50,834 nucleotides of DNA, taken from an uncultured Clostridium sp. Its GTDB lineage: Bacteria; Bacillota_I; Bacilli_A; RF39; UBA660. Where the stretch lies: NCBI GenBank assembly GCA_945788325.1, contig CALZLL010000001.1, positions 1 to 50,834 of the forward strand, given 5' to 3'. The notes below the pieces were generated by a model. The model did not search any database, was not told the DNA's origin, and worked only from the letters and a program-made list of their open reading frames with translations. The number at the start of each line of letters is the position of its first letter. Positions within the stretch are counted from its first letter, which is position 1. Position numbers and translations under genes: made by a program. Below are positions 90-45,557 of the stretch, piece after piece.

Positions 90-431
90 ATGAAATCTAA
101 TAAAGGTCAAGCGTTAGTAGAATTTATTATAATTTTACCGATTACACTAATTCTTATTTTTTGCGTTGTTGATTTTGGAAGAATAATATCTACCAAAGGA
201 GAATTAGAAGATAAAACCCAAGATATAGTTACTTTTTATGAAAGTGGTAAAACTTTAGAAGAAATAAACTTAATCATGGATAATAAAGATATTAAAATTG
301 ATTTTAAAAATAATGGGGATTATGTTACTCTTACAATAAATAAAAAAATAAAACCAATAACTCCTGGATTATCATATATTTTGGATGAAGCGTTTAACGT
401 TGAAGTAACCAGGGTGATAAAAAATGAATAG
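90..431 (+). CDS. TadE-like pseudopilin / Flp pilus assembly protein
   Basis: N-terminus KGQALVEFIIILPITLILIFCVVDFGR matches the TadE-type motif (G-x-x-x-VEF plus a hydrophobic helix). RBS aggggtgg lies upstream. Sits at the head of the tadZ-tadA-tadB-tadC block. Confidence 0.6.
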   Translation: MKSNKGQALVEFIIILPITLILIFCVVDFGRIISTKGELEDKTQDIVTFYESGKTLEEINLIMDNKDIKIDFKNNGDYVTLTINKKIKPITPGLSYILDEAFNVEVTRVIKNE

Positions 432-819
432 GCTTAACTCTAAAGGGCAAAGTTTGGCAATCTTTGTAATTTTTGTACCAGTTTTTATCATGATTGGGAC
501 TTTGGTTGTAGATGTTTCTTTTGCGCGTTACAACGTAAGAAAATTAGATAATATAAATAAGTTAGTAATAAATTATGGATTAGATCATATAGAAAGTGAT
601 CCTTATGATAACATGGTTGATTTGATTTATAAGAATGATTCTGAAGTAGATAATTACGAGATAAAAATTAACCTTGAAGAAAAGAAAATAAACGTTAATA
701 TTTCAAAATCTACAAAAGGTTTTTTTGGTAGTATTGTTGGAAAAGAAATATATAAAGAAAAAAGTTTTTTTATAGGATACATAAAAGATGATAAAAAAAT
801 AATAGAAAAGGATGATTAG
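424..819 (+). CDS. TadG/Tad_N-like pilus assembly protein
   Basis: N-terminus KGQSLAIFVIFVPVFIMIGTLVVDVSFARY resembles the TadG-like N-terminal domain. Overlaps the preceding gene by 8 nt (translational coupling). Confidence 0.5.
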   Translation: MNRLNSKGQSLAIFVIFVPVFIMIGTLVVDVSFARYNVRKLDNINKLVINYGLDHIESDPYDNMVDLIYKNDSEVDNYEIKINLEEKKINVNISKSTKGFFGSIVGKEIYKEKSFFIGYIKDDKKIIEKDD

Positions 820-820
820 T

Positions 821-1609
821 ATGAAAAAAGAAGCTGCAAAGGTAATAACTGTTTTTTCATGTAAAGGTGGTGTTGGAAAAACAACTACCACACTTAATTT
901 AGCAGGTATATATAGTTTGATGGATAAAAAGGTTTTAATTATGGATCTTGATTTAAATAGTGGTGGTGTAGCGGTTAGTTTAAACGTTGATGTATCAAAA
1001 ACAATTTATAACGTAGTTGATGACATGGGTAACAATCGCTTTGATGATATTGAAAATTACGTTTGTAAATATAATGATAAAATAGATGTTTTATCATCGC
1101 CAAAAGACCCAAGAAACGCTATGAAAATAGATTCTAAGTACATTGGGCTTGTTATTACTTCTGCCATGTATAAATATGATGTTATTTTAATAGATACATC
1201 TCATAATTTAAGTCCAATATCACTTACGGCATTAGATAAAAGTGATAATACGTTATTTATGGTTACTAATGATCCGGTTGATTTAAAGAATGCAAAAAGT
1301 ATGATTTCAATATTTAAAGATACTGAAAATGATAATTATAAAGTTGTTTTTAATTCTTCTAAAGATACTGGTAAAGATTACTTTTCATTATTTGATGTTA
1401 AGAACATTATTAAGCATAACATTGATTATACGATAGATAAAAGTTTTTATATAAAAGACATTGATAAATATGTTATAGATGGTGATATTCTTACTTTAAA
1501 TAAAAAAATAAGAATATCTAAAAAAAGTGATGTTATGAAACTTACCAAGTTAGCTAATGCTTTAATAGAACCAAAGCCAAAAAAAATAGAGGTGAAAAAA
1601 GATGCCTAA
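821..1609 (+). CDS. TadZ/CpaE-like ParA/MinD-family ATPase
   Basis: Deviant Walker A CKGGVGKTTTTLNLAG and position directly upstream of the CpaF-like ATPase. The ORF track starts at 812; the ATG at 821 has better spacing to RBS aaagga. Confidence 0.7.
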   Translation: MKKEAAKVITVFSCKGGVGKTTTTLNLAGIYSLMDKKVLIMDLDLNSGGVAVSLNVDVSKTIYNVVDDMGNNRFDDIENYVCKYNDKIDVLSSPKDPRNAMKIDSKYIGLVITSAMYKYDVILIDTSHNLSPISLTALDKSDNTLFMVTNDPVDLKNAKSMISIFKDTENDNYKVVFNSSKDTGKDYFSLFDVKNIIKHNIDYTIDKSFYIKDIDKYVIDGDILTLNKKIRISKKSDVMKLTKLANALIEPKPKKIEVKKDA

Positions 1610-2936
1610 GAAAAAATTAATGGAAGAATTTGAAATAAAAGAAGAAAAAGTAACTACTAAACCAGTTGCGGATTATGATATATTTAAAGATAAAGAATTA
1701 TTGGATAATTTAAGAAATAGTATTATTTCTAATTTGATTGATGATAAAATTCCTGATAATAAACTGCTTCATGAATACATAAATGATGAAATTGATAAGG
1801 CTCTTTTAGGATATGATTTAACAAATTTAGAACGTAGTCATATATTTAACTTAATTGATAATGAAATAAATGGTTATGGTCCTATTACGGAGCTGTTAGA
1901 AGACCCTAATATTACCGAAATAATGATTAATGGAGAAAATGAAGTTTATGTTGAAATAGATGGTCAAATTAGTAAGGATGAATCTGTTTCATTCATTAAT
2001 GATGAACACATCATAAGAACCATTCAAAAAATAGTTCAACCATTAGGTAGAACGATAGATACCGCAAATCCTATGGTAGATGCAAGATTAGAAGATGGAT
2101 CAAGACTTAATGCGGTAATACCACCATTGTCATTAAAAGGACCAGTTGTTACGATAAGAAAGTTTAGACGAGATATGGAAACGATTGAAGACTTTTTAAG
2201 AACTGGTGCAATGACACCTTACATGGCACGTTTTTTAGATGCTGCGGTAAGATCTAAACTAAACATAATTATATGTGGTGGTACAGGCGCTGGTAAAACA
2301 ACTTTACTTAATGCTTTATCTTCATTCATTGGTGATCATGAACGTATTATTACAATTGAAGATGCAGCTGAGTTAAGACTTAATCAATCACACGTAATTA
2401 GTCTTGAAACAAGGTTAGTAAATTATGAAGGTACCGGAGAAGTTACCATTCGTGATTTAGTTATAAATTCACTTCGTATGAGACCAGATAGAATAATTGT
2501 TGGAGAAGTACGTGGTAAAGAAGCATTTGATATGCTTCAAGCCATGAATACCGGACATGATGGTTCTCTTACAACGATGCATGCTAATAGTCCAGTAGAG
2601 GCTTTAAACAGACTAGAAACCATGGTTTTAATGGCTGGTATGGAAATACCAATTAAAGCTATTAGAGAATATATTGAAAACGCAATAGATTTAGTAGTTA
2701 ACGTATCAAGATTATCAGATGGAAGAAGAAAAGTAACTAGTATTTGTGAAGTAGATGGTTTTAAAGAAGATATGATTGAATTAAAAGAAATATTTAATTT
2801 TAAACAAACTGGTTTAACAAATGCTGGAGAAGTAGATGGATCATTTGATCTTAAAAAACGTATTCCAAAGGTTTATAACAAAATTAAAAGTAGAGGTATA
2901 GATGATTTAGACGACATATTTAAATTTAAAAAATAG
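1602..2936 (+). CDS. tadA: Tad secretion ATPase (CpaF/TadA family, VirB11-like)
   Basis: Walker [15 protein letters not shown], then [21 protein letters not shown] and [13 protein letters not shown], which are typical of CpaF/TadA. Confidence 0.9.
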
Positions 2937-2948
2937 GAGGTAATAAAG

Positions 2949-3941
2949 ATGAATATATTTATCATTCAGACAATTATAATGGTACTTTTAGCTTTTATTA
3001 TTTTCTATTTAATATTATATAATAATAGTCTAAAGTTAGAGAAAAGAATATCAAAGTATAGTATTGAATCTATAAAAAGTGATTCAGTTTCATTATTTGA
3101 TTTAATATATAACGATTATAAAAAATTAATAGCATATCTTACTAAAAAACTTAATAAAAGTGCTATTATAAAAAAATATGCAACTAAATATAATAAGTAT
3201 ATAACTTATGAAAATGATAAAGATATAGTTGCTATGGATTACGTTAGCAACAAAGTATTAATTTGCATACTATTTATTTTAATTATTATATTTGCAAGAA
3301 TAATAGAAGGAATATTTCCTAGTTTTATAGATTTATTAATATCATCATTATTAGGCTTTTTTTCAATTGATATATATTTTAAATTCTATGATTATATTAA
3401 GAAAAAACAGATAGAACAAGACTTATTAAACGCTATTATCATAATGAATAATGCGTTTCGTTCTGGTAGAAGTACGATGCAAGCTATTGAAATAGTAGCT
3501 AAAGAACTAAAAGGACCAATAAGTCAAGAATTTAAAAAGATGCATTTAGAAATAAGTTATGGCTTATCACTTGACGTTGTATTTGAAAGATTTTCAAAAA
3601 GGATAGAATCAGAAGAGGTAAGCTATATTACGTCATCTCTTAGTATTTTAAATAAAACTGGCGGTAACATAATAAAGGTTTTTTCTTCAATAGAAAAAAT
3701 GCTATTTAATAAAAGAAAGTTAAAGCAAGAAATGAAGTCTCTTACGTCATCAGCTAATATGATAAGTAAAGTTTTACTTATTATGCCTTTTGTTTTTGTA
3801 GCGGTTATTTCTCTTTTGAACCCAACTTATTTTACACCTTTATTTAATACTAGCTTAGGTAATATTTTACTTATTATAATAGTAATAATATATGCATTAT
3901 ATGCCTTCATAGTTAACAAAATCATGAAAGTGAGGTTTTAG
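2949..3941 (+). CDS. tadB: TadB-like type II secretion system F-domain membrane protein
   Basis: Polytopic membrane protein with a T2SSF-like cytoplasmic helical region (AFRSGRSTMQAIEIVAKEL). Follows tadA. Confidence 0.7.
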   Translation: MNIFIIQTIIMVLLAFIIFYLILYNNSLKLEKRISKYSIESIKSDSVSLFDLIYNDYKKLIAYLTKKLNKSAIIKKYATKYNKYITYENDKDIVAMDYVSNKVLICILFILIIIFARIIEGIFPSFIDLLISSLLGFFSIDIYFKFYDYIKKKQIEQDLLNAIIIMNNAFRSGRSTMQAIEIVAKELKGPISQEFKKMHLEISYGLSLDVVFERFSKRIESEEVSYITSSLSILNKTGGNIIKVFSSIEKMLFNKRKLKQEMKSLTSSANMISKVLLIMPFVFVAVISLLNPTYFTPLFNTSLGNILLIIIVIIYALYAFIVNKIMKVRF

Positions 3942-3943
3942 TA

Positions 3944-4648
3944 ATGAAACAAAAAAAATCATTTATATACCGCATTTATCGTGAAAAAGATATAAAGAAA
4001 ATTGATGATAAAATAAATTTATTTGGAGTTTCTAAAAAATTTACAACCGAGTATTTTATGAACTTTAGATTATACTCATCAATGATAGTGTTTTTATTAA
4101 TATTTGTATTTGCTAACTTTGGAGCATTACTAGCACCAATTATAACTGTGTTATGGTATGTTTTAGTAGGTTATACCATGATTGATAAGCCTCTTAAGAA
4201 AAGAGAAAGAAAGTTAGATAACGAAGCATATTATTATTTTGAAGTATTAACTTTGGCGTTAGAATCTGGAAGAAATCTAGAAAATGCTATAAAAATGGCA
4301 TGTAAATACATAGATTCTGAAATATCAGATGAGTTTAAAGAAACAATAAAACAAGTTAACTTTGGTAAATCTTTAACGGAAAGTTTATCGCTTATGAGTT
4401 ATCGTATTCCTAGTTTAACAATTAATAATATTATTTTAAACATGGAACAATCAAATCTTTTTGGTAATAGTATAATAGAAACTATGTATAACCAATTAGA
4501 CTTCTTAAAAGATAAACAAGTCATGGACATAAAATCTCAAATTAATAAAATTCCAAATAAGATAAGTATCTTTTCAGTATTATTTTTTATACCTCTTATT
4601 CTACTTATAATATTAGGACCAGTATTAATAGAATTTATTTTAGGATAA
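3944..4648 (+). CDS. tadC: TadC-like type II secretion system F-domain membrane protein
   Basis: Second T2SSF-like membrane protein (LALESGRNLENAIKMA) immediately after tadB. Confidence 0.65.
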   Translation: MKQKKSFIYRIYREKDIKKIDDKINLFGVSKKFTTEYFMNFRLYSSMIVFLLIFVFANFGALLAPIITVLWYVLVGYTMIDKPLKKRERKLDNEAYYYFEVLTLALESGRNLENAIKMACKYIDSEISDEFKETIKQVNFGKSLTESLSLMSYRIPSLTINNIILNMEQSNLFGNSIIETMYNQLDFLKDKQVMDIKSQINKIPNKISIFSVLFFIPLILLIILGPVLIEFILG

Positions 4649-4757: not shown

Positions 4758-6059
4758 ATGGAAAAAGAAAGAAGAGCAAAAACATTAAGTATAGTAGCTT
4801 TAATAGTTGCAATATTAGGCTTAACAATAGCGTTTGCAACACTATCACAAACACTAACAATAAATGGAAGCGCATACTTAAACGCAACAAAGTGGGGAAT
4901 AAAGTTTGAAAACTTATCATCACCAATAAAGGTAGGTGATGCAACAGTTACTGGGGAAGCTAAAATAAATGAAAGTACCTACGTAGAAATAGCAAATATG
5001 AACGTTAATTTAAAAACACCAGGAGATAGTGTTACATATAACGTAGATTTAGTAAACGAAGGAACAATAAATGCAAAAATAGATGAAATAGTAAAAACTA
5101 CAACACCTGATTATTTATCATTTAAAGTAATAAAACAAGATAATAAAGAATTAGAAGAAGGATATGTATTAGGTAAAGAAACAAGAATACCCTTAAGAAT
5201 AGAAATAGAATTTAAGAAAGATATAACAAAAGAAGACTTACCAAAAGAAGCAATTACAATAGAACTATCATATGCTTTAACATTTGTACAAACGGATGAA
5301 ACCGCTACAAGCATTGGACAAACTCCATCATCAGCATGTACAATATTTGATAAAAAAGATACATACCAAGTAGGAGATGAAATAGCCCTATGTAATAATG
5401 ATACAAATAAATCAGAAGACTTCTATGTAATAAGTGATAATGGAGATACAGTAACAGCGCTAGCTAAGTATAATTTACTTGTTGGTAATGAAGTTGAAAT
5501 AGATAATTTTGAAGATTATAATATAGTTAGAAATGATCCGATAGATTCATCAACTACTGGATATGGATTGCAAAATAGTAGTGCAAAAGCATTTGTATTA
5601 GATAACACTATCTGGACTGGAACAATAGTATTTGCCGAAGATAAAAATAAGGGTAATGGATATTGGGCACCAACTGGTAGTCTCTTAAGTACGTATGGAA
5701 CAAGTTATCCAGCATACGTATTTGATGAAAATTCATTATTATATGAACCATTAAAGAATTATGAATCATATATAAAAACAACATTAGGAAAAACAAGTGT
5801 AAATACTAGTTTATTAACCTATGAGCAAGCTACTAGCTTAGGTTGTGTTAAAGATAATCGTACATGTGAAGCTGCACCTAGTTGGGTATATGAAACGTCA
5901 TACTGGCTTGGTTCTGCTCTCGGTGGAAGCTCTGTTCCAGGTGTTGAGTCGTATGGCGGTTTCGAATGCTGGTATGACTTCAACTACGACATCTACTTCA
6001 ACAGTGGCTACCCTCTCGGTTTGCGTCCAGTCATAACAATAGCTAAAACTGATTTATAA
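4758..6059 (+). CDS. Surface protein paralog A: N-terminal signal-anchor, beta-rich N-domain (TasA/camelysin-like by motif, tentative), C-terminal lectin-fold-like domain ending in a hypervariable segment
   Basis: N-terminus MEKERRAKTLSIVALIVAILGLTIAFATLSQTLTINGSA, then PGDSVTYNVDLVNEGT. C-terminal pattern LLTYEQATSLGC ... SYWLGSA-(variable)-GLRPVITI resembles DUF1566 / C-type-lectin-fold DGR targets. The gene is certain; the functional call is tentative. Confidence 0.5.
   Translation: MEKERRAKTLSIVALIVAILGLTIAFATLSQTLTINGSAYLNATKWGIKFENLSSPIKVGDATVTGEAKINESTYVEIANMNVNLKTPGDSVTYNVDLVNEGTINAKIDEIVKTTTPDYLSFKVIKQDNKELEEGYVLGKETRIPLRIEIEFKKDITKEDLPKEAITIELSYALTFVQTDETATSIGQTPSSACTIFDKKDTYQVGDEIALCNNDTNKSEDFYVISDNGDTVTALAKYNLLVGNEVEIDNFEDYNIVRNDPIDSSTTGYGLQNSSAKAFVLDNTIWTGTIVFAEDKNKGNGYWAPTGSLLSTYGTSYPAYVFDENSLLYEPLKNYESYIKTTLGKTSVNTSLLTYEQATSLGCVKDNRTCEAAPSWVYETSYWLGSALGGSSVPGVESYGGFECWYDFNYDIYFNSGYPLGLRPVITIAKTDL
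5919..6032 (+). other. Candidate DGR variable region (VR-A) within paralog A
   Basis: Of 38 codons, 18 end in C (ctc agc ggc ttc tgc gac ttc aac tac gac atc tac ttc aac ggc tac ctc gtc), versus 2 of the first 38 codons of the same gene. 20 of 114 nt are A. The segment ends 9 codons before the stop. Confidence 0.55.
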
Positions 6060-6195
6060 TAAATAAAATGAATAACTAATAATTTGTTATTCTCTTTTTG
6101 TAAAGAAACTTTACAGCACGTATATATTTTTATTTACTGGGAATATTTTTAATGATAATATTTAATTATAAGATAGTGATAATAGGAGTGCTGTT

Positions 6196-7260
6196 ATGAA
6201 AAAGGATATAGTTGAATACTTGGGATTTGATGAGGAAGAAGAAAAGAAAAAAGTAGGAAGACCAAAACTTGCTGATAAAGAAACAAAAAGAAAATCTTTA
6301 ATTATAGCTAGTGTATCTTTTTGTGCAGTTATTCTATTACTAATTTTTGGATATGGAACTTTATTTGGATTTAAAAATTTAAATTTAAAAGGTACCGTTA
6401 GTAATAATGAAATAAATCAAGATACGTTAGTTGAAGAAATAAAACCACTTGTTAAAGATATAACTCTTAAAACTGGTACTGCAAGAAAGGTATATTTAAC
6501 TGTTTTACCAGCTAGTGCAAACGATAAATCTATAAGTTATAAAAGTTCTGATGAATCTGTTGCGATAGTTGATAATGAAGGTAAAGTTACTGGAATATCA
6601 GTTGGTAATGCTACTATAACTGCTACTACTAATGATGGTTCTAACTTAAGTACCACATTTAAAGTAAAGGTAATTAAAAACGCAGAAGGAAAATGTGTTT
6701 TTACATCACTTTCAAAGACTTCAAATGGTATAGAATATGAAACTGAATGTAATAATGCAAAGATAAAGGAAATACAATATAAAGTAGGAGACGATAACTT
6801 TGAAAAGTTACTTACTAAAAAGACAACTGATGAAGTTAAGTTTTCTAAAGATCAATTAGATAATAAAATAACTTTTAAAATAGTATATTATCCAAATAAT
6901 AGTAAAATTACTAAATACGAAGTTAAAACATTAAATGGCAAAGAAAAAACTACTAAAGCACCTACTGGAAATTGCTCTCTTATATTAAAAGATGTAAAGG
7001 CATCATCTGCTAAGTATGATATAACGTGTGATAATGCTAGTGTTACTAAAATTGCATATAAGATAGGAAATGGTAGCTATATTGGTCTTGAATCAAGTAG
7101 TTTAGCTGACACAATATTATATGAAGAAAGTGATGTAACAAGGGTTATATACTTTAATATAGAATATGTAATTGATGGAACTAATAATGTTAAAACAATA
7201 ACAAAAAGTAGTATAATAGAAAAGAAAATAATAAATAATGATGTAGAAGGAGAAATGTAA
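6196..7260 (+). CDS. Membrane-anchored protein: N-terminal KVGRPKLA motif, TM helix, Big_2-like Ig domain, two Cys-pair repeat modules
   Basis: EEKKKVGRPKLADKETKRKS followed by hydrophobic LIIASVSFCAVILLLIFGYG. SDESVAIVDNEGKVTGISVGNATITATTNDGS is Big_2-like. Modules GKCVF...ECNNAKIKEIQYKVG and GNCSL...TCDNASVTKIAYKIG. Confidence 0.5.
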   Translation: MKKDIVEYLGFDEEEEKKKVGRPKLADKETKRKSLIIASVSFCAVILLLIFGYGTLFGFKNLNLKGTVSNNEINQDTLVEEIKPLVKDITLKTGTARKVYLTVLPASANDKSISYKSSDESVAIVDNEGKVTGISVGNATITATTNDGSNLSTTFKVKVIKNAEGKCVFTSLSKTSNGIEYETECNNAKIKEIQYKVGDDNFEKLLTKKTTDEVKFSKDQLDNKITFKIVYYPNNSKITKYEVKTLNGKEKTTKAPTGNCSLILKDVKASSAKYDITCDNASVTKIAYKIGNGSYIGLESSSLADTILYEESDVTRVIYFNIEYVIDGTNNVKTITKSSIIEKKIINNDVEGEM

Positions 7261-7261
7261 A

Positions 7262-7645
7262 ATGGCAAAGAAGGAAGAAAAAAATAAAGTAGGAAGACCA
7301 AAACTAGCTGATAGTAAAACAAAAAAGGAATCAATATTTATATGTATTTTTACTATGGTTGTAATAACAATTGTAGCTATTTTGGGATATAATATTTTAA
7401 CGATTGATTTTAATCCCAAATATAATGTTGGTTCAATTTATAATACTCATGTTTCATCTTGTGTAATTGAAGATAAAAAAATTGATTGTGGACCTAACGT
7501 TACTTATATGAAGTATAAATTAGATAATGAAGGTTGGATAGAAGTTAGTAAACAAGATAAAAGCATAGAAGTAGCACTTGATAATAATAAAAAAGTTGAG
7601 TTTTGCTATAAAACTGATAAAACTGATATAAAATGTAATAAATAA
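7262..7645 (+). CDS. Small membrane-anchored protein: N-terminal KVGRPKLA motif plus one Cys-pair module
   Basis: KEEKNKVGRPKLADSKTKKES followed by TM IFICIFTMVVITIVAILGY. C-terminal CVIEDKKIDC...YMKYKLDNEGW. Confidence 0.5.
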   Translation: MAKKEEKNKVGRPKLADSKTKKESIFICIFTMVVITIVAILGYNILTIDFNPKYNVGSIYNTHVSSCVIEDKKIDCGPNVTYMKYKLDNEGWIEVSKQDKSIEVALDNNKKVEFCYKTDKTDIKCNK

Positions 7646-11190: not shown

Positions 11191-12216
11191 GTGATTGGCG
11201 TAATTGAAAGAATAAAAAATAGTGTTTTACTTAAGTGTAGCACATTAAACGACGAAGTTATTTCTAAAACGTTGGATGACTTAATTAATACTAGAATATA
11301 TCGTTTTTCAGAAGAAATGGTTAGTTTAATTGGAGATTTCGAAAGTTCTATAACCGAGGAAATATTAAGAAATGAAGTTAGTAAAATCATTAAAACTCCA
11401 ATAATAAAGAAAATAAAAAGAAAGTTATTTATTGATTCATTAGCACTTCAAATAACTAACGATACGTTTATTGAAGACTATGTTAACAATAAAATTACAT
11501 TAGAAAAATTAGAAAAAACATATATAAAAGAACTAAATAAAAACAAAAGTTCTAATCAACTAAACATGACTGAGGATTTGAATCTTGAAGAAATAATAAA
11601 TGAACTTAGAATATACGTTGATAAAAACTTTAATTCAAAGTTAAGTGAAAATAATTTTTTAGTTAGTTCAATTAATAATTTAGTATCTAACTTAAAAGAA
11701 AATCTAGAACAAGATTTAAAAGAAATGATAGATGGGACCGATTTGAAATATTATGATATTTTAAAAACAGAATTACTAAGTGAAATAGAAGAGAAAAAAG
11801 AAGATGAAGGGGAAGAAAACATGATGGATAATATAAATGAAACAAGAATATCTGATTTGGTAAAAGAAGAAAATATACCAAATAAATTTGATAAATATGA
11901 TGATATGACTTTATTTAATAAAATAATTTTAAGTCTTAATACGGAAGAAGAAAAATTATCTAGAAAAGAAGAAAAATTAAGACTTAGAAAAGAAGATGTA
12001 GATAAAAGATTATCTGATACTAATAAAAATATTGAAGCTAATATCGAAAGAGAAAATAAACTATCTCAAAGAAAGATGGAATTAAATGCTAGAGAACTTG
12101 AAATTAATTCTAAGTTATCTGAAGCTGAAGTTATCTTCCTTAACATGAAGCCATTAATTAAAGGACTAAGCAAGATTAAGGACTCTAACGAAAATGGAGG
12201 TAGTGAAAATGAGTAA
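11191..12216 (+). CDS. Acidic coiled-coil protein, unknown function
   Basis: GTG start after RBS aaggagg. K/E-rich heptad-like C-terminal half. No recognisable catalytic motif. Confidence 0.4.
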   Translation: MIGVIERIKNSVLLKCSTLNDEVISKTLDDLINTRIYRFSEEMVSLIGDFESSITEEILRNEVSKIIKTPIIKKIKRKLFIDSLALQITNDTFIEDYVNNKITLEKLEKTYIKELNKNKSSNQLNMTEDLNLEEIINELRIYVDKNFNSKLSENNFLVSSINNLVSNLKENLEQDLKEMIDGTDLKYYDILKTELLSEIEEKKEDEGEENMMDNINETRISDLVKEENIPNKFDKYDDMTLFNKIILSLNTEEEKLSRKEEKLRLRKEDVDKRLSDTNKNIEANIERENKLSQRKMELNARELEINSKLSEAEVIFLNMKPLIKGLSKIKDSNENGGSENE

Positions 12217-22904: not shown

Positions 22905-24197
22905 GTGGAAAAAGAAAGAAGAGTAAAAGCACTAGCAATAGTAGTACTTGTAATAGCAGTGCTAGGGCTTACAATAGCATTTGCAGCATTATCACAAACA
23001 CTAACAATAAATGGTAGTGCAAAACTAGATGCATCAAAATGGGGACTTAAGTTTGATAATCTAGTATTAGCATCAGGAAATGAATATGTAGAAGGAACTG
23101 CAAATATAAAAACAGATGATAATACTGTAATAGAAAATATGAACGTAAGATTAACAACACCAGGAGATAAAGTAGTATATACGGTAGACTTAGTAAATGA
23201 AGGAAGTATAAATGCTAAGATAGATAATATAGTAAAAACAGTATTAACAACCGAGCAAGAAAAATATTTATCATTTAAAGTATTAAAAGAAAATAATGAA
23301 GAATTAAATGAAGGATATGTATTAGGTAAAGAAACAAGAATACCACTAAAAATAGAAATAGAATTTAAAAAAGATATAACGAAAGAAGACTTACCAAAAG
23401 AAACAAGTACAATAACGTTATCATATGGTGTAACATTTGTACAAACAGATGAAAAGATAGCAACAACAGGACAAGGACCTACAACAGCATGTACAATATT
23501 TGAAAAGAAAAGTGCATATAATGTAGGAGATGAAATAGCCCTATGTAATAATGATACAAATAAATCAGAAGACTTCTATGTAATAAGTGATAATGGAGAT
23601 ACAGTAACAGCTCTTGCTAAGTATAATTTACTTGTTGGAAATGAAATCGAACTTAATAATAAAGAAGAAGTTATTGTATCTAATATTGTTAGAAAGGATC
23701 CAATAGATCCATCAACACCTGGATATGGATTGCAAAGTAGTGAATCAAAAGGATTTATATTAGATAATACTGTATTTATCGGAATAATAAACTTTGCTGA
23801 AAATAATACTATTGGATATTGGGCAGAATCAAGAACTGCACTTTTAAGTAAATATGGAACAAGTTTTCCAGCATATGTATTTGATGAAAATTCATTATTA
23901 TATGAACCATTAAAGAATTATGAATCATATATAAAAACAACATTAGGAAAAACAAGTGTAAGTACTAGTTTATTATCTTATGAGCAAGCTACTAACTTAG
24001 GTTGTGATAAAGCTAATAAAACATGTGAAGTTGCACCAAGTTGGGTATATGAAACATCTTACTGGCTTGGTTCTGCTGCCAATGGTCTCCACGTGATGGG
24101 CGTTGCATCGAATGGTTCCTTAGCGAATCACAGCTTCTACACCGAATTCCGTTTAGGTCTTCGCCCAGTTATAACAATATCAAAAACTGATTTATAA
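22905..24197 (+). CDS. Surface protein paralog B (same architecture as 4758..6059)
   Basis: GTG start after RBS aggagg. The N-terminus and several internal blocks are near-identical to paralog A at nucleotide level. C-terminal SYWLGSA-(variable)-GLRPVITISKTDL. Confidence 0.5.
   Translation: MEKERRVKALAIVVLVIAVLGLTIAFAALSQTLTINGSAKLDASKWGLKFDNLVLASGNEYVEGTANIKTDDNTVIENMNVRLTTPGDKVVYTVDLVNEGSINAKIDNIVKTVLTTEQEKYLSFKVLKENNEELNEGYVLGKETRIPLKIEIEFKKDITKEDLPKETSTITLSYGVTFVQTDEKIATTGQGPTTACTIFEKKSAYNVGDEIALCNNDTNKSEDFYVISDNGDTVTALAKYNLLVGNEIELNNKEEVIVSNIVRKDPIDPSTPGYGLQSSESKGFILDNTVFIGIINFAENNTIGYWAESRTALLSKYGTSFPAYVFDENSLLYEPLKNYESYIKTTLGKTSVSTSLLSYEQATNLGCDKANKTCEVAPSWVYETSYWLGSAANGLHVMGVASNGSLANHSFYTEFRLGLRPVITISKTDL
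24078..24170 (+). other. Candidate DGR variable region (VR-B) within paralog B
   Basis: Of 31 codons, 12 end in C (gcc ctc cac ggc tcc cac agc ttc tac acc ttc cgc). 18 of 93 nt are A. Same position in the domain as VR-A but 21 nt shorter. Confidence 0.5.
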
Positions 24198-33442: not shown

Positions 33443-34363
33443 ATGAAAGAATGGCTTTTAAAGGATGAAAAGAATAAAGTTGGAAGACCAAGATTAGCTA
33501 GTGACGAAGTTTTAAAAAAAGCTAAAATATCAATTGCGGTAGGTTTTATAATTAGTTTTGTTCTTATGTTTTCCTTTTTTAGCATCTTAAAAGGCACAAC
33601 TCCTACAAAATACGCATATTCTCTTACTTTAGAAAAACTATTTGGAGAGTTAACAAATAAAAATGGTTTTATAGTAAGTGATTATTATGATAAAAATGAT
33701 GATTATGTTATGGAATTTAAAGTTCCAGACGTAATATATAATTATTCAGGATCTTATAAATATACATTATATGAACTTAATAATAACGAATGGAAAGAAA
33801 AAGATAGTAAAACAATTGATAAAGAAGAAAGAAGTTTTAAGATAAAAGTTAAATCTTTAAAAAACCAAAATAAAACTTGGAAGATAAAGTTACAAATTAT
33901 AAATGCTACCAATATAAAAGAAGCTTATAACCCATCTTCTTGGCAATTTAATGATTCTAAAAATACTAAAGATATGTATGCGTATAAAGTATTTACTGTA
34001 AAAGGATATTATAGCCCGGTATTAAATGAAGAATTAAAAGAATCTAAAAAGAGTAATGATAAAATAACGATAGATACTAAAAAAGAAGATCCTAGAAGTT
34101 TTATTGTAAATTTAAATGATGGGGTATATAACGTGGTTGTTAAATATACTGATACAGCTTCTAAGGAAGTTTTACTAGCAAATGATAAAGAAGTAAGTGG
34201 AATAAAAGAGTATGTAATACCTGGATTAGATCGCTCTACTAAGGTGGTATTTAAAATTTATGGTGAAGATGTTAAAAGTAAGAGATTATCTAATTGGCAA
34301 TATCAAGAAAGTAAAGGATATATTACTAATAGTTATGTTTTAAAACCAGAAAAAGCATATTAA
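33443..34363 (+). CDS. Membrane-anchored protein with N-terminal KVGRPRLA motif (third family member)
   Basis: DEKNKVGRPRLASDEVLKKAK followed by TM ISIAVGFIISFVLMFSFFSIL, then a beta-rich ectodomain containing YTLYELNNNEWKEKD, which resembles YKLDNEGWIEV of 7262..7645. Confidence 0.5.
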   Translation: MKEWLLKDEKNKVGRPRLASDEVLKKAKISIAVGFIISFVLMFSFFSILKGTTPTKYAYSLTLEKLFGELTNKNGFIVSDYYDKNDDYVMEFKVPDVIYNYSGSYKYTLYELNNNEWKEKDSKTIDKEERSFKIKVKSLKNQNKTWKIKLQIINATNIKEAYNPSSWQFNDSKNTKDMYAYKVFTVKGYYSPVLNEELKESKKSNDKITIDTKKEDPRSFIVNLNDGVYNVVVKYTDTASKEVLLANDKEVSGIKEYVIPGLDRSTKVVFKIYGEDVKSKRLSNWQYQESKGYITNSYVLKPEKAY

Positions 34364-40423: not shown

Positions 40424-40532
40424 CTCTATAATAATATATGTAAATGTATGATTATGTTTAAATAATATGTAAAAAAGAGTTTAAAAAATAAAAAAATATG
40501 TTATAATTATTTTATAGAATAGGAAGGTGTTT

Positions 40533-42344
40533 ATGAACGCGCTAGAGATTATATTATTGCCATTTGTTTTTATATATAGAGGATTCATAAGTGTATTATT
40601 AATACCATATTACATAGTTATTGGTATAGGTAAATTATTTAGTGGTGGAAAGTCAACTAAAAAGACTATCCCTGAAATAAAACCTGGAGAACAAGTAAAA
40701 GTTATCAAAGAAAAAAAGTCTGCTTATAATAAACCAAAAGCCCCGGTAAAAGAAATAGATAAGGTTAAATTAGCTCAAGAAAAAGACCAAAACAAATTAA
40801 AAAGACAAAAGGAATTTGAAAAATTAGTAGCTAAAGCAAGAGCTGAAGAAGAAAGAAGAATTAAAGAACAAGAAAGATTAAGAATTGAGAATGAAAGAAA
40901 AGAAAAAGAAAGAAAGGCTCGTGAGTTAGAACGACAAAAAAAAGAAGAAGAACTTGAGGCGTTAAGAGAAAAAAAAGAAGAAGAATTAAAAGAAATGGGA
41001 GAGCCAGTTACTTTTTCTGATAAGTTAAAAGCTTTTTATAAAAAACTTACATATAATAAAAAAGAAGAATTAGAATTAGAAGCTAAAAAAGCTGTTTTAG
41101 ATGAACAATTTAAAGATAAAGATGCTAAAAATTCTAGATTTGCTAAAGCTTTAACCTTTGATTATACCGCTCGTAATGCTAATGGAGTTTTAGAAAAAGG
41201 CACCATTGAAGCTTTATCTAGGGTTGATGTTCACTCGTTCTTAACCGCTGAAGGTTATGAGGTATATGAAATAATTCCTGCGAAAGCTAACATAAAATTT
41301 ATAACTTATAGAATGAAAAGAAATCGTTTGATTTTCTATCTATCACAATTGTCTGCTTATTTAAAATCTGGAATAGCACTAGCAGACGCTGTCAAAATAT
41401 TAGATGACCAAGCAAAGAATGTTAATGAAAAGAAAACATGGCGTGCTGTATATTATGATTTATCAATGGGTGATGTGTTATCACTAGCTATGGATAAAAG
41501 AAAAGAAACATTCCCAAGACTTTTAATTAACATGATTAAAACCGCTGAAATGACTGGTAATTTAACTGAAACTTTAGATGATATGGTTGATTATTACACA
41601 GAATCAGAAAGTACAAAAAAACAAATGAAATCTGCAATGATGTATCCTATTATGGTAACTATTTTTGCATCTGTAGTTGTTACGTTTATACTTATGTGGG
41701 TTGTTCCTCAATTCGTTGATATCTATTCTGATTTAGGTAGTGATTTACCTGTTATTACTAAAGTGGTAATAGGAATAAGTGATTTTTTAAAAAATTATTT
41801 AATATTTATTTTATTAGCAATAATTATTTTAATATTAATTTATACGTATTTATTTAAAAACGTTAAATCATTTAGAAGAAGTATGCAAGAATTTGCAATG
41901 CATTTACCTGTTTTTGGTAACATCATTATATATAACGAAGTAACTATTTTTTCTAAAACATTTGCTAACTTAATAAATCATAATGTTTTTATAACCGATT
42001 CAATGGATGTATTAAGTAAAATAACAAATAATGAGGTTTATAAAAAATTAATTTTTGACACTGCAAGAAACCTTACTAAAGGTGAACCAATTTCAACTGC
42101 TTTCAAAGATCATTGGGCATTTCCAAACATTGCTTATCAGATGCTTATTACTGGTGAAAAAACAGGTCGTTTAGGACCAATGATGGAAAGAGTTTCTAAA
42201 TATTATCAAGAACAACATAGAAGTATAATTAATCAAATGAAATCACTTATTGAACCAATAATGATAATTACTCTTGCATTATTAGTAGGTTTCATATTAT
42301 TATCTGTAATACTTCCAATGTTTAGCATGTATGATGCTTTATAG
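40533..42344 (+). CDS. pilC: Type IV pilus / T2SS platform protein (PilC/GspF family) with a ~175-aa N-terminal extension
   Basis: Two T2SSF repeats in the C-terminal ~400 aa (LSAYLKSGIALADAVKIL ... ; FANLINHNVFITDSMDVL ...). N-terminal hydrophobic hairpin followed by a K/E/R-rich helix. Confidence 0.8.
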   Translation: MNALEIILLPFVFIYRGFISVLLIPYYIVIGIGKLFSGGKSTKKTIPEIKPGEQVKVIKEKKSAYNKPKAPVKEIDKVKLAQEKDQNKLKRQKEFEKLVAKARAEEERRIKEQERLRIENERKEKERKARELERQKKEEELEALREKKEEELKEMGEPVTFSDKLKAFYKKLTYNKKEELELEAKKAVLDEQFKDKDAKNSRFAKALTFDYTARNANGVLEKGTIEALSRVDVHSFLTAEGYEVYEIIPAKANIKFITYRMKRNRLIFYLSQLSAYLKSGIALADAVKILDDQAKNVNEKKTWRAVYYDLSMGDVLSLAMDKRKETFPRLLINMIKTAEMTGNLTETLDDMVDYYTESESTKKQMKSAMMYPIMVTIFASVVVTFILMWVVPQFVDIYSDLGSDLPVITKVVIGISDFLKNYLIFILLAIIILILIYTYLFKNVKSFRRSMQEFAMHLPVFGNIIIYNEVTIFSKTFANLINHNVFITDSMDVLSKITNNEVYKKLIFDTARNLTKGEPISTAFKDHWAFPNIAYQMLITGEKTGRLGPMMERVSKYYQEQHRSIINQMKSLIEPIMIITLALLVGFILLSVILPMFSMYDAL

Positions 42345-42359
42345 AAAGGAAAAATACTT

Positions 42360-43148
42360 ATGAGTTTAGAAGTTTTAAATGGTATCATGATATTTATAAT
42401 TGGACTTATATTTGGATCTTTTTATAATGTTGTAGGATACCGATTACCAAATAATATGTCGATTGCATTTCCTGCATCTCATTGCATAAATTGTAATCAT
42501 AAACTAAAATTTTATGAACTCATTCCGGTTATATCCTATGTTTTTCTAGGTGGTAAATGTAAAGCTTGCAAAAAAAGGATATCAATCGTTTATCCTTTTT
42601 TTGAGCTTCTTACTGGTACATTATTTTTACTTTCATATTTATTTTTTGGATTAAATTTAAAATTTTTAATTGCAATAACCTTTATTTCAATACTTATAAT
42701 AATAAGTATAAGCGATATTAGATATTACATTATTTCAGATGAAGTTTTAATTATTGGTAGCATTTTAATTATTATAGAAATGATAATTTATGCACTTATA
42801 AATGACTTAAGTTTAGTTAAGGAAGTTTTAATACCTATATTAAATGGTGCTGGTAGTTTTGCGATACTTTATTTGTTTAAAGTATTAGGAGATTTTATAT
42901 TTAAAAAAGAAAGTCTTGGTGGTGGAGATATAAAATTAATGTTTTTTATAGGGTTAACGCTAGGATTTGATATGTCTATTGTAACTATATTTATAGCTTC
43001 TTTTATAGCACTTCCTTTATCAATAATAAGTTTAATTAAAAATGATAATAATGTTTTACCTTTTGGTCCATATTTATCAATAGCAGCTGTAATAATATTA
43101 TTGACTAATTTAGACTTGGATATGATATTAAATTTTTTTGTAAAGTAA
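42360..43148 (+). CDS. pilD: Prepilin peptidase (A24 family, PilD/ComC-like)
   Basis: N-terminal CxxC...CxxC (CINCNHKL ... CKACKKRIS). Catalytic Asp motifs ISDIRY and GGGDIKLM. Confidence 0.9.
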   Translation: MSLEVLNGIMIFIIGLIFGSFYNVVGYRLPNNMSIAFPASHCINCNHKLKFYELIPVISYVFLGGKCKACKKRISIVYPFFELLTGTLFLLSYLFFGLNLKFLIAITFISILIIISISDIRYYIISDEVLIIGSILIIIEMIIYALINDLSLVKEVLIPILNGAGSFAILYLFKVLGDFIFKKESLGGGDIKLMFFIGLTLGFDMSIVTIFIASFIALPLSIISLIKNDNNVLPFGPYLSIAAVIILLTNLDLDMILNFFVK

Positions 43149-43156
43149 TATAAAAT

Positions 43157-43216
43157 AAAAAAGCATTGCTTTTTGAACTACCTTATATAGGGTAGACATC
43201 AAAAGCAATGCTTTTT
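43157..43216. terminator. Nested inverted repeat / bidirectional terminator between convergent pilD and pilB
   Basis: Outer arms aaaagcattgctttt and aaaagcaatgctttt are perfect reverse complements. They enclose an inner hairpin ctacc-ttatata-gggtag. Confidence 0.65.
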
Positions 43217-44525
43217 ATAAATCTAACATTTCCATACCATCATCTTCAACATTGTTATTAGAATTTTGATTAACGGAAGGTTGAGATGCTTGTTCTTGGT
43301 TTGATGAAGAAACATCTTTACCAGAAACGATTCTTACTGATTCATCATCAAGTTCTACTAAACGAAGAATTTCTTCAATTGTTGTTGTATTTTGTAATAC
43401 TTTTTGAAGACCATCTTGTAAAAGGGTAGTAGTATCTCCTTTATATACTAGCTTTCTTAATTCTTCTTTTGGCATACCATTTGATATTGCGTCTCTTATT
43501 TCTTGAGATATTACTAATACTTCATGAATAGCAATTCTTCCTTTATAACCACCAACGCACTCAGAACATCCTTCTGCATATGCAAGTTCGGTTATATCAA
43601 CACCTAGATTTGCTTTTATAAGCTTTTTTTCATAATCAATAGCAGGTCTTTTTTTCATACAATGAGGGCATATTCTTCTAGCTAATTTTTGTGATACAAT
43701 ACCATTTAATGAACTAGCAAGTAGGTATGTTTCAACATCCATATCTTTTAAACGTTCAATAGTATTTAATGCGTTATTTGTATGCAAGGTAGATAATACT
43801 AAGTGACCAGTAATAGAAGCTCTAACTGCTATTTTTGCCGTTTCATCATCACGAATTTCACCAATCATTATTATATCTGGGTCTTGACGTAATATAGAAC
43901 GTAAAACTTCAGCAAAGGTAAGTCCAATTTCACTATTAACCTGAATCTGGTTCATACCCGCAATATTCATTTCTACTGGATCTTCAACCGTAACTAAGTT
44001 AACTTCAGATGTGTTAAGAGTTTGAAGCATTGCGTAAACCGTAGTTGATTTACCTGATCCGGTAGCGCCAGTTACCAGTATGATACCATTAGGTTCTTTT
44101 ATTAATTCTTCAATCTTTTTTAAATTATTAGGTGTAAGACCTAATGCATTAAGACCTTTCATAGAAGTAGAATAATCTAAGATACGAATAACTATTTTTT
44201 CACCTTCATTTGTAGGAAGAGAAGAAACACGCATGTCTAAATTAATATCTTTTATGGTTGTTTTAATAGCACCATCCTGTGGAAGCCTTGATTCAGTAAT
44301 ATCCATACCAGATATAATCTTAAGTCTAGCAATTAAATTTTTTCTAATAGCCTCAGGAATCAAAACGTAATCTATTAGTACACCATCTATTCTAAACCTT
44401 ACTTTAATTGTTGTTTCGGTAGGATCGAAGTGGATGTCACTAGTACCAGCTTGCGCTGCAATATATATTATTTCATTTACTATTTCAGTAATAGGTAATT
44501 TAGTAAAATCTATTTGTTTTAACAT
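43215..44525 (-). CDS. pilB: Type IV pilus assembly ATPase (PilB/GspE family), short form
   Basis: Walker A GATGSGKSTT, Asp box, Walker B IIMIGEIRD, His box LSTLHTN, tetracysteine CPHC...CSEC. No long N-terminal GSPII domain. Q/N/S/acidic C-terminal tail. Confidence 0.85.
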   Translation of the reverse strand: MLKQIDFTKLPITEIVNEIIYIAAQAGTSDIHFDPTETTIKVRFRIDGVLIDYVLIPEAIRKNLIARLKIISGMDITESRLPQDGAIKTTIKDINLDMRVSSLPTNEGEKIVIRILDYSTSMKGLNALGLTPNNLKKIEELIKEPNGIILVTGATGSGKSTTVYAMLQTLNTSEVNLVTVEDPVEMNIAGMNQIQVNSEIGLTFAEVLRSILRQDPDIIMIGEIRDDETAKIAVRASITGHLVLSTLHTNNALNTIERLKDMDVETYLLASSLNGIVSQKLARRICPHCMKKRPAIDYEKKLIKANLGVDITELAYAEGCSECVGGYKGRIAIHEVLVISQEIRDAISNGMPKEELRKLVYKGDTTTLLQDGLQKVLQNTTTIEEILRLVELDDESVRIVSGKDVSSSNQEQASQPSVNQNSNNNVEDDGMEMLDL

Positions 44526-44646
44526 TCATATCGCTCCCTTATTATTCTTTATTCTTTTTTTATTCTTATCTTTTCTACTAGATTTTATTATAATAATATT
44601 ATATAATATATTTTAGAAGATAGCAATAAAGAAAAGGTGATATTTT

Positions 44647-45207
44647 ATGAAAAAGAATAACAAGGGATTCTTTTTAGCAGAAACTATAGTTGTAATAGCA
44701 CTTGTTACAACTGTTATGGCATTTGTTTATCCTAATGTTACTAAGTTGTATGAAAATTATAAAAACAGGGCTAATTATTATGATCAAACAGAGGATTTGT
44801 ATATATTAAAAGCGGTTTATGAAGCTAATAAAGAAATAATTGATGAATATACCGAAGGAGCAGATAATTGTATAATAGAAGATATTTATGCCGAAAAAGG
44901 TGGTGGAAATATATCATATCTTCAGGATACTAATGATCCTAATAAAGCACCTATTAATAAACCACCTATTTTAGTCGAATTATATATAAGTAGCTATATG
45001 TCAACCCTTTCATCAGATAATTATAATTTTAATAAATATTTAAAAAGATTAAAAAAAACAACTTATGATGGTGGTGCATATAGACTTATAGGTATTTTTG
45101 AAAAAAAAGATGGTTCGGGGAAAATAATAGAAACAAGGTATGCATCTATTAAAATCGATAATCCAAACCCAGATAGATATTGTAATTTAGGAGGAAAACA
45201 AGACTAA
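44647..45207 (+). CDS. Type IV prepilin-like protein
   Basis: Class III signal MKKNNKG|FFLAETIVVIALVTTVMAFV, with Glu at +5 after the predicted G|F cleavage. Confidence 0.75.
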   Translation: MKKNNKGFFLAETIVVIALVTTVMAFVYPNVTKLYENYKNRANYYDQTEDLYILKAVYEANKEIIDEYTEGADNCIIEDIYAEKGGGNISYLQDTNDPNKAPINKPPILVELYISSYMSTLSSDNYNFNKYLKRLKKTTYDGGAYRLIGIFEKKDGSGKIIETRYASIKIDNPNPDRYCNLGGKQD

Positions 45208-45557
45208 TGAAAAAAGTTAATAATAAAGGTATAACATTAATTGAACTAATTGTAAGTTTTGCATTAATAGGTGTTTCGATAATATACTTTTCTCAAACTT
45301 TATATACGGTAAAAAAAGTTTATGCTACCGCAAGAGATGAAACTAATGAGTTTATAGCTAAAGATTATGCGTTAAGATTACTTGATAAATATATTGATGA
45401 AAATGGTACAACTAATTTAACATCTAATTTTTGCGTTAAAATTGTGGATTGTAATGATATAGTGGTAAGCACTGATAATGGTCTTAATACTTATCAAATT
45501 AATGGTATTATATTTGGAAATGGTAAAACAACATCGGCAACATTATATAAAAATTAA
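45207..45557 (+). CDS. Type IV prepilin-like (minor pilin/pseudopilin) protein
   Basis: MKKVNNKG|ITLIELIVSFALIGVSIIYF, an N-terminal cleavage/methylation motif with Glu +5. Confidence 0.75.
   Translation: MKKVNNKGITLIELIVSFALIGVSIIYFSQTLYTVKKVYATARDETNEFIAKDYALRLLDKYIDENGTTNLTSNFCVKIVDCNDIVVSTDNGLNTYQINGIIFGNGKTTSATLYKN

Follow-up and report, generated by a model that had tools for sequence, protein, structure and literature searches.

A likely diversity-generating retroelement target at the 3′ end of a Tad-adjacent gene in an uncultured Clostridium, with template repeats in a sister clade

The DNA analyzed here, which we call the window, is a 50.8-kb stretch (50,834 nucleotides, 26.0% G+C) of contig CALZLL010000001.1 from an uncultured Clostridium sp. 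It encodes two members of an unannotated protein family, gene A and its paralogue gene B (Table 1). Gene A ends with the motif SYWLGSA, a GC-rich patch (LGGSSVPGVESYGGFECWYDFNYDIYFNSGYPLGLRPV, VR-A) and the closing residues ITIAKTDL*. A sequence-only reading of this DNA had set gene A beside Tad-type pilus genes, correctly as the Pfam matches of the genes upstream confirm, and had proposed that the patch is the variable region (VR) of a diversity-generating retroelement (DGR), in which a reverse transcriptase (RT) copies an adenine-rich template repeat (TR). We conclude that VR-A is likely a DGR-written variable region. VR-B, near the 3′ end of gene B, is likely a second one, and the 3′ ends of both genes are to be treated as hypervariable in annotation.

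The composition of VR-A departs abruptly from that of the gene that carries it. Its 114 nt (20 A, 29 C, 30 G and 35 T) read CTC GGT GGA AGC ... CGT CCA GTC, and codons ending in C (NNC) make up 18 of the 38. Only two of the first 38 codons of gene A are of this type, as are 26 of its 387 codons outside VR-A. Measured against the 14 other open reading frames (ORFs) of the window (7910 codons; NNC 6.1%, A 39.9%), the probability of at least 18 NNC codons in 38 is 1.4e-12, and that of at most 20 adenines in 114 nt is 2.4e-7. The NNC excess, the adenine depletion and the scarcity of NNC codons at the start of the gene had all been noted in the sequence-only reading and were confirmed on recounting; the spurious alternate-frame ORF that it described at 5845..6036 also exists. 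At least 59 G+C are found in 0.016% of all 114-nt segments, and these lie in two places only, VR-A and 24055-24168. VR-A and the patch of gene B tie for the highest G+C of any 114-nt stretch in the window. In segments of 200 nt, the G+C fraction steps from ~0.30 to 0.43 at VR-A.

Table 1. Coordinates of the features discussed, in the window and on metagenome loci.
Feature	Sequence	Positions	Strand	Description and basis
Gene A	window	4758..6059	+	ORF of 433 amino acids (aa); secreted two-domain protein; unannotated paralogous family from human-gut metagenomes
N-terminal part of gene A	window	4758..5333	+	hydrophobic helix (model residues 5-29) and beta-sandwich (strands in residues 33-179); AlphaFold2 (AF2) secondary structure
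C-terminal globular domain of gene A	window	5334..6056	+	residues 193-433; resembles DUF6273; VR at C-terminal end
Adenine-free 5′ anchor TGGCTTGGTTCTGCT (W-L-G-S-A)	window	5904..5918	+	probable 5′ end of the TR-homologous stretch
VR-A, variable region proper	window	5919..6032	+	38 codons; 52% GC; 17.5% A
In-frame 21-nt expansion, VR-A only	window	5964..5984	+	third 'TTC + 5 codons' unit; placement ambiguous; alignments
Conserved tail ATAACAATAGCTAAAACTGATTTATAA (ITIAKTDL*)	window	6033..6059	+	tail form without GTAA hairpin (ITIxKTDL in the window's clade)
Terminator-like hairpin 3′ of gene A	window	6070..6099	+	GAATAAC-TAATAATTT-GTTATTC, then T-run; sequence and RNA fold; no DGR-type hairpin with 4-nt loop
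Gene B, paralogue of gene A	window	22905..24197	+	430 aa; between dgkA and era; 72% identity to gene A
VR-B	window	24078..24170	+	31 codons, 12 NNC; 18 A in 93 nt
Tad-type pilus cluster	window	90..4648	+	directly upstream of gene A; Pfam TadE, AAA_31/ParA, T2SSE, two T2SSF
TadE-like	window	90-431		Pfam
CpaE-like ATPase	window	812-1609		Pfam
T2SSE ATPase	window	1602-2936		Pfam
Two T2SSF genes	window	2949-3941 and 3944-4648		Pfam
TR, example	L052	11365-11476		
TR, example	L046	11315-11420		
Stretch including the cassette in the TR position	L006	11282-11635		cassette 11501-11635 A-poor, with gene B-type 3′ flank
RT	L011	1745-3022	-	425 aa, phage-type DGR RT; RVT_1 E 6e-10; IGSGLSQ and YMDD; on a 3.2-kb contig, convergent to family gene

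In the 237 nt that precede the VR, genes A and B share 92% of their DNA sequence. Identity then collapses within the VR, where the two differ in length by 21 nt, and recovers at GGTxTxCGxCCAGTxATAACAATA. The anchor TGGCTTGGTTCTGCT occurs exactly two times in the window, at 5904-5918 and at 24063-24077. A VR of ~100-150 nt at the 3′ end of an ORF, with sharp borders and conserved flanks, is characteristic of DGR targets, and VR-A has this layout. It contains three 'TTC + 5 codons' units, compared with two in its relatives, and the resulting in-frame expansion possibly arose by slippage on an internally repetitive template. A comparable expansion of ~12 nt is present in L038, a locus of a sister clade of the family.

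Comparison of related strains places the variation where the composition changes. Identity to gene A reaches 62% or more in only around 15 protein clusters, and DNA of this clade was compared from three loci: L007, with the gene A ortholog followed by the same Big_2, DUF421 and YfhO genes; L005, with the gene B ortholog between dgkA and era; and L006, a third genomic context. Gene A and L007 are 92-98% identical downstream and 48-53% identical in the VR, and gene B and L005 are 95-100% identical in the flanks and 65-73% in the VR. The earlier expectation that variation among related strains would be confined to the patch holds in part: VR identity collapses relative to the flanks, and residues ~241-300 vary too. 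This second variable region (~5478-5660 in gene A, and the same residues in gene B) is AT-rich and contains indels; strains with 95-100% identity in the flanks show 65-80% here.

The codon positions common to the VRs of the window's clade (GTG TGG, GTT, TCG, GGC, TTC, TTC, CTC GGT TTG CG) are free of adenine. Most are GC-ending codons that are rare for a 26% GC genome, and they are shared between paralogues. A MAFFT alignment of six VR DNAs has 30 invariant columns, comprising 9 C, 9 G, 12 T and no A, compared with A in 35 of 100 invariant flank columns (Fisher p = 2.9e-5). The adenine rule of DGRs can be tested in this way without a template, and in this alignment the VRs obey it.

The same block is the hypervariable part of the family as a whole. 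Among 8000 candidates scored from public proteins, 844 are homologues of gene A at E<=0.001, nearly all of them metagenome-derived and nameless. Alignments of 31 and 87 members are conserved apart from a loop at residues ~241-300 and the block between YWxGSA and GLRPV. Here column entropy reaches maxima of 2.4-2.9 bits, compared with 0.2-1.0 bits across most of the protein, and this is the only block above 2.4 bits among the 87 homologues. Relative to the rest of the protein, the block is rich in G (13.0% versus 6.6%), Y (9.1% versus 4.9%), F (7.4% versus 2.7%), D (9.8% versus 6.2%) and N, and poor in K (0.9% versus 8.0%) and E (2.8% versus 6.2%). Mutagenesis of AAC and AAT codons cannot give K, E, Q, M or W. 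The depletion of K and E and the enrichment of G, Y, F, D and N are therefore the spectrum predicted if AAC and AAT codons are mutagenized.

Single contigs carry at least five copies of the family. Three proteins, P0125-P0127, join a P0006-like N-terminal part to a P0007-like C-terminal part, and these mosaics of two paralogues indicate that paralogue recombination is active in the family. In a P0036-type paralogue near radC/mreC (L001-L004, L009, L010), the VR, VDASYSAEMVGHDMVDPAFGYGGLEENMAGL, is AT-richer and does not vary, being the same on contigs of many samples; this member of the family looks frozen and seems to be no DGR target.

Template repeats for this family were found in the sister clade. 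Scanning metagenome contigs, human-gut by their record names, for a protein pattern gave 80 loci, in which 75 VRs were located. When the VRs were compared by blastn with all loci, many family genes proved to have a second, A-rich, VR-like cassette ~200-300 nt downstream. The sister-clade TR opens with GCGTCCGCG and reads in codons GCG TCC GCG AAT AAC AAT AAC AAC GTT TGG AAT GTG AAC TCG AAT GGT AAC TTT GAC AGC AAC AAC TTT GAT AAT TCT GGT AAC TAT GGT CTT C.., with the run from the first AAT following GCGTCCGCG. An exact 26-mer of its start is present in 11 loci (L050-L053, L040, L043, L046, L054, L061, L062 and L028). Some TR copies contain in-frame TAG or TAA codons and are therefore non-coding; the TR frames have no upstream start codon and extend for merely 22-47 codons from the first in-frame start.

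The VRs differ from this template in the manner of a DGR. Across 20 distinct VRs, 380 of 671 template adenines are changed, compared with 96 of 1385 positions with C, G or T (odds ratio 17.5, p = 4e-134). The substitutions at TR adenines include all three replacements (A>G 180, A>T 143, A>C 57), and in base-by-base alignments of L059, L055, L053 and L061, nearly all differences lie beneath a template A. By their non-A mismatch to the TR, the sister-clade VRs split into those with up to 13% and those with 21% and above; on this measure, only some of the paralogues appear to be written from the sister-clade TR.

At a locus adjacent to parE, the downstream DNA of strains is 97.5-99.8% identical whereas their VRs are just 58-74% identical, from which it follows that writing is recent on the scale of strain divergence. 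Two loci of this context, L046 and L043, share an identical VR. The sister-clade locus closest in setting to gene A is L055, where the family gene is followed by the same terminator, Big_2, DUF421 and YfhO. Like gene A, it lacks both an adjoining TR and the module described below. The mismatches of its VR to the sister-clade TR fall at 20 of 34 A and 2 of 70 non-A positions. Because this VR is adenine-specific in the downstream context of gene A, the sister-clade gene there can be demonstrated to be a remote DGR target.

In most demonstrable targets, the VR is followed by the tail ITISKSDI*, one base, a hairpin (AATCATTC-GTAA-GAATGATT), a conserved spacer of ~150 nt and the TR. The hairpin has an 8-bp AT-rich stem and a GTAA loop. 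In L006 it reads TCACC-GTAA-GGTGA, with the same loop and an altered stem, and the pairing of TCACC with GGTGA reads as a compensatory change. BPP-1 requires a hairpin just 3′ of its VR (Guo et al., PMC3240598; PMC5758913), and phage DGR targets have stems of 7-10 bp with 4-nt GRNA loops 4-34 bp after the VR (PMC3240598). Four sister-clade targets without the GTAA hairpin (L055, L018, L041 and L047) are adenine-specific all the same. P0015 is the sole other gene of the window's clade with a module-type tail. No sigma-70 consensus promoter was found in the spacer, and no Rfam family matched the spacer or the TR region.

The TR copies occur in at least three contexts, namely adjacent to Big_2, adjacent to parE/parC, and in L060/L061. 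The Big_2-adjacent TR bears an old gene tail and terminator, and L092, whose downstream genes are those of L006, has a divergent A-rich cassette in the TR position. The simplest reading of these arrangements is that the module has spread among paralogues through recombination at TR/VR homology. In L006, the orphan cassette in the TR position begins exactly at TGGCTTGGTTCTGCT. It was considered as the TR of the window's clade and rejected, being A-poor, having CGG Arg at the Arg-Pro-Val position as coding VRs do, and differing from the adjacent VR at many non-A positions. Several TR cassettes read CAC or CAA at the Arg-Pro-Val position. L036 also has an A-poor cassette in the TR position, and the L006 and L036 cassettes may each be either a displaced VR or an overwritten template.

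We next consider the protein itself. No Pfam, NCBIfam or PDB sequence match was found for gene A or gene B. The full-length AF2 model of gene A has a predicted local distance difference test (pLDDT) score of 82.8 and no significant PDB match. Its N-terminal beta-sandwich weakly matches the archaeal bundling pilins 7ueg and 7pnb in Foldseek (prob ~0.8; template-modelling score, TM, 0.16-0.35), and the same domain has sub-threshold matches to Peptidase_M73 (PF12389, camelysin/TasA family; E 0.18 and 0.035). These give only a hint that the domain may be pilin- or TasA-like. Residues 193-433, modelled separately (pLDDT 87.5, predicted TM 0.88), have one notable PDB match, the top one, to the Thomasclavelia ramosa immunoglobulin A peptidase 9qa6 (prob 0.95, E 1.2e-3, TM 0.37), which is marginal. 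Their best viral matches in BFVD include DUF6273 proteins of gut phages (prob 0.85-0.87). The 9qa6 protein's N-terminal domain, residues 31-322, is DUF6273 (PMC12402451), and DUF6273, a C-lectin-like domain, is a target of DGRs and bears the VR C-terminally (PMC10743442, PMC11792537). On the strength of these models, the C-terminal domain of gene A resembles DUF6273.

The DUF6273 Pfam model (PF19789) matches neither gene A nor 24 aligned family members, even at E<=10. A profile search returned 1806 representatives (50% identity) at E<=0.001, with up to 8 matched stretches per protein. We sampled 49 remote homologues, each scoring E<=1e-33 against the profile of the family. PF19789 matches 11 of them (best E 2.4e-15), nine have a type IV pilin N-terminal motif and one matches Lcl_C/DUF1566. 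The relationship of gene A to DUF6273 is therefore transitive, passing through remote homologues that match the model. Fusions occur in some members of this superfamily (P0129-P0277), the partners being type IV pilin N-termini, Listeria-Bacteroides repeats, Big_2, fn3 or leucine-rich repeats. The sequence-only reading had suggested a DUF1566-like or classical C-type-lectin fold, and this was not borne out: membership of the classical C-type lectins, DUF1566 or the formylglycine-generating enzyme (FGE) domain was rejected for want of a Pfam match and of a Foldseek match among the PDB entries listed. Its expectation of a lectin fold at residues ~300-433, examined on the model of 193-433, stands insofar as the domain is DUF6273-like, a fold that the literature calls C-lectin-like, and fails for the classical folds.

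Together, these results outline how VR-A could have been written. Gene A is predicted to be a secreted protein that begins with a beta-sandwich and ends with a lectin-type domain resembling DUF6273; the final ~35-40 residues of the latter would form an exposed, putative ligand-binding tip. An A-rich TR would be transcribed, and a DGR RT would copy it with misincorporation opposite template adenines. The cDNA would then replace the stretch from the adenine-free anchor TGGCTTGGTTCTGCT to GGTxTxCGxCCxGT, turning template AAC and AAT into NNC and NNT codons and retaining the non-A scaffold codons (GTG TGG, GTT, TCG, GGC, TTC, CTC GGT TTG). We infer that VR-A was written from a clade-specific TR outside the window, and that an RT exists or existed in this genome. 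In relatives, the TR is found ~200 nt downstream of another paralogue.

A number of observations weigh against this account. No TR was recovered for the window's own clade, and the sister-clade TR misfits both VRs of the window, with non-A mismatches at 35 of 68 positions in VR-A and 28 of 70 in VR-B. No repeat that mismatches VR-A at template adenines only was found in the window or among the related loci. L006, the sole module-bearing locus recovered from the window's clade, has an A-poor cassette where a TR would be expected, which looks like a template that a VR has overwritten or recombined with. VR-A itself has no GTAA hairpin and is followed instead by an AT-rich terminator hairpin, of 7-bp stem and 9-nt loop, and a T-run (RNA fold); VR-B likewise lacks the hairpin, having an 8-bp stem with a TTTA loop on its 3′ side, and neither VR has the module. 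The scaffold of VR-A deviates from that of its clade, with GTT CCA in place of GTG TGG, and includes E and W codons that are unreachable from AAC. Together with the 21-nt expansion, these deviations point to slippage and later drift, or to a template that differed somewhat. Cluster mates at 90% identity, on separate contigs, have identical VRs in proteins that differ elsewhere (P0006/P0122/P0123; P0007/P0125/P0126/P0127), and several sister-clade VRs are fixed across samples, which speaks against ongoing turnover. Among the PDB matches listed by Foldseek, none is to Mtd, TvpA, FGE or DUF1566.

The missing components count against it as well. In the 50.8-kb window, an ungapped A-tolerant scan for a TR returned A-rich noise only, and pattern scans found anchor and scaffold at the two VRs alone or nowhere. 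The window has no RT and no YxDD ORF of >150 aa; Pfam searches of 40 window ORFs gave no RVT_1, with matches that include Tad and type IV pilus genes, PolC, MutS and Era. The sequence-only reading had likewise seen neither TR nor RT in this DNA. Beyond the window, a YxDD ORF scan and tblastn with the RT of L011 (see below) over 88 loci (~1.04 Mb) gave no credible RT within 6-10 kb of ~75 family genes; five loci added afterwards had none either, and RVT_1 is absent from the called genes of thirteen loci with Pfam hits. Viral contigs gave no match in one scan with a protein pattern or in five with DNA patterns, which covered the anchor of the window's clade, a TR with AAY degeneracy, the stretch 3′ of the TR adjacent to parE, and the hairpin together with the spacer. 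A TR pattern restricted to TAC-TGG had a sole match in a genome collection, at L008 2342-2393 in a Micrarchaeia metagenome-assembled genome, and this is unrelated sequence matched by chance.

One RT was encountered beside a family gene, on L011, and was rejected as the RT of the family. Its region is ~41% GC, and homology of the contig to L019 and L035 ends 48 nt past the stop codon. The adjacency is not reproduced in L019, L035 or L089, and elsewhere the same gene is followed by secDF and relA. The nearest relatives of this RT are gut-phage RTs at <=37% identity, and the contig has no TR for the VR. L011 is probably a chimeric contig or an unrelated phage insertion.

The proposal of a DGR-diversified tip thus stands in part. 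Its support at the level of the family is strong, coming from the hypervariable block, the absence of invariant adenines, the TR-VR pairs of the sister clade, the L055 counterpart and the DUF6273-like fold; a TR of its own, an RT and present-day turnover are the parts that were not found. Action in trans and a relic, the two states that the sequence-only reading had offered, are both live options. That VR-A is a recent relic comes close to an even chance, and that it is still an active remote target is a real possibility of somewhat lower probability. A broader scheme would be a dispersed DGR network, with several TRs per genome, each ~200 nt downstream of its target behind a ~330-nt module (VR, tail, GTAA hairpin and spacer). 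Recombination would spread the module and turn former gene tails into templates, one distant or mobile-element RT would serve all copies, and lineages such as that of the window would have lost or overwritten the TR, as in L006, leaving their VRs frozen. We regard this network as unlikely and put it forward as speculation.

The alternative that survives best dispenses with a retroelement. Diversifying selection with recombination or gene conversion among paralogues would vary the tip, and its composition would be a by-product of favoured residues (G, Y, F, D, N and S) or of GC-biased conversion. A multi-copy family with at least five copies on single contigs is suited to such exchange, the P0125-P0127 mosaics and a recombination junction at the VR border of L006 make it visible, the mid-gene region (~aa 241-300) varies between strains too, and no RT was found. 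What it leaves unexplained are the adenine-free invariant VR columns, the rare GC-ending scaffold codons (TCG, GTG, GGC, TTC, CTC) common to paralogues in a 26% GC genome, and the non-coding A-rich copies, some with stop codons, that differ from 20 VRs almost only at adenines. We consider it improbable. A second alternative is that horizontal transfer or recombination brought in the 3′ end of the gene, as a foreign or mosaic piece, from a donor of higher GC, and that it has no special variability in this lineage. This would fit the abrupt GC step (~0.30 to 0.43) and the stability of VRs among cluster mates. It is disfavoured, and we give it very little weight, as the GC-rich block sits at the same position in all aligned homologues with mostly different sequence, its borders coincide with conserved in-frame motifs, and its flanks, including the 27-nt tail, are natively AT-rich. 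A chance fluctuation in composition or an assembly artefact, which has nothing in its favour beyond the window being a metagenome-assembled contig, is refuted by the probability of ~1e-12 and by the fact that the feature recurs in the paralogue as well as across many samples that were assembled independently.

Read as a DGR target, gene A has its closest counterparts in the DUF6273 targets of the Faecalibacterium prophages Lelie, CP11, Roos and Pioen (the 'tentaclins' nd4/nd12). Its domain is nearest to DUF6273 by Foldseek, both come from the human gut, and, like the phage proteins (PMC11792537), the domain carries its VR at the C-terminal end. Unlike the phage targets, gene A is chromosomal, among housekeeping genes, multi-copy, and without adjoining RT or TR; its domain is fused to an N-terminal secretion signal and beta-sandwich, and the protein falls below every Pfam threshold. 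DGR targets >100 kb from their RT are documented (Wu et al. 2018, PMC5758913). As in Treponema denticola TvpA and other chromosomal DGRs with remote targets (PMC5758913), one template could serve several scattered paralogous genes for surface proteins, and in gene A too a lectin-type domain bears the VR at its C-terminus. Those systems keep the RT, the TR and at least one target together in a cassette, whereas in the sister clade the TRs are found downstream of targets, in several copies per genome, and no RT lies within 10 kb. The DUF6273-like domain also sets gene A apart from the FGE-sulfatase domain among surveyed DGR targets (PMC5758913).

The Bordetella phage BPP-1 DGR (mtd VR, TR, Brt and Avd, with the initiation of mutagenic homing site and hairpin) offers a further comparison. 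The family shares with it a VR of ~110-130 nt at the 3′ end of the ORF, an AAC-rich template with A-to-N changes only, and, for most targets of the sister clade, a hairpin of 8-bp stem and 4-nt loop just 3′ of the VR (PMC3240598). Unlike in BPP-1, the sister-clade loop is GTAA and not the GRNA consensus, the stem is AT-rich, the VRs of the window have no such hairpin, gene A has no Mtd-like fold match, and neither avd nor brt was found. Bacteroides type V pilus adhesin DGRs (bioRxiv 10.1101/2024.11.15.621889) are similar in diversifying a secreted tip in a gut commensal, one that may be fibre- or pilus-associated, and differ from gene A in phylum, pilus system and target fold.

If VR-A is DGR-written, a large unannotated family of secreted proteins in low-GC human-gut Firmicutes varies a lectin-like tip by retroelement hypermutation, with several copies per genome and one directly behind a Tad cluster, and DUF6273-like DGR targets extend from gut phages to chromosomal host genes. 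Such targets may escape surveys that begin from the RT, because none of the copies examined has an RT within 10 kb. A locus at which some strains have the TR and others lack it would form a natural system for studying template origin, spread and decay, and adenine-specific and frozen VRs would likewise offer a natural comparison for template origin and decay. For the window itself, the result is a useful annotation and no surprise; the unusual arrangement worth following is that of TR copies behind targets, several per genome, with no RT nearby.

Tad genes also precede a family member in the sister-clade loci L056 and L030, and paralogues elsewhere occupy unrelated contexts. A functional tie between gene A and the Tad pilus may exist and is putative, gene A being a positional neighbour alone. 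A terminator scan with GC-stem criteria returned nothing for the hairpin 3′ of gene A. The window contains, in addition to the Tad cluster, a type IV pilus gene set at 40527-46426, with a PilC-like T2SSF gene, an A24 prepilin peptidase, a minus-strand T2SSE ATPase and an N_methyl pilin-like ORF. Three otherwise dissimilar proteins, encoded at 6196..7260 (with a Big_2 domain), 7262..7645 and 33443..34363, share a start motif (...EEKKKVGRPKLADKETK..., at 6238-6302, 7274-7338 and 33464-33528) followed by a membrane helix, and two of them are directly 3′ of gene A.

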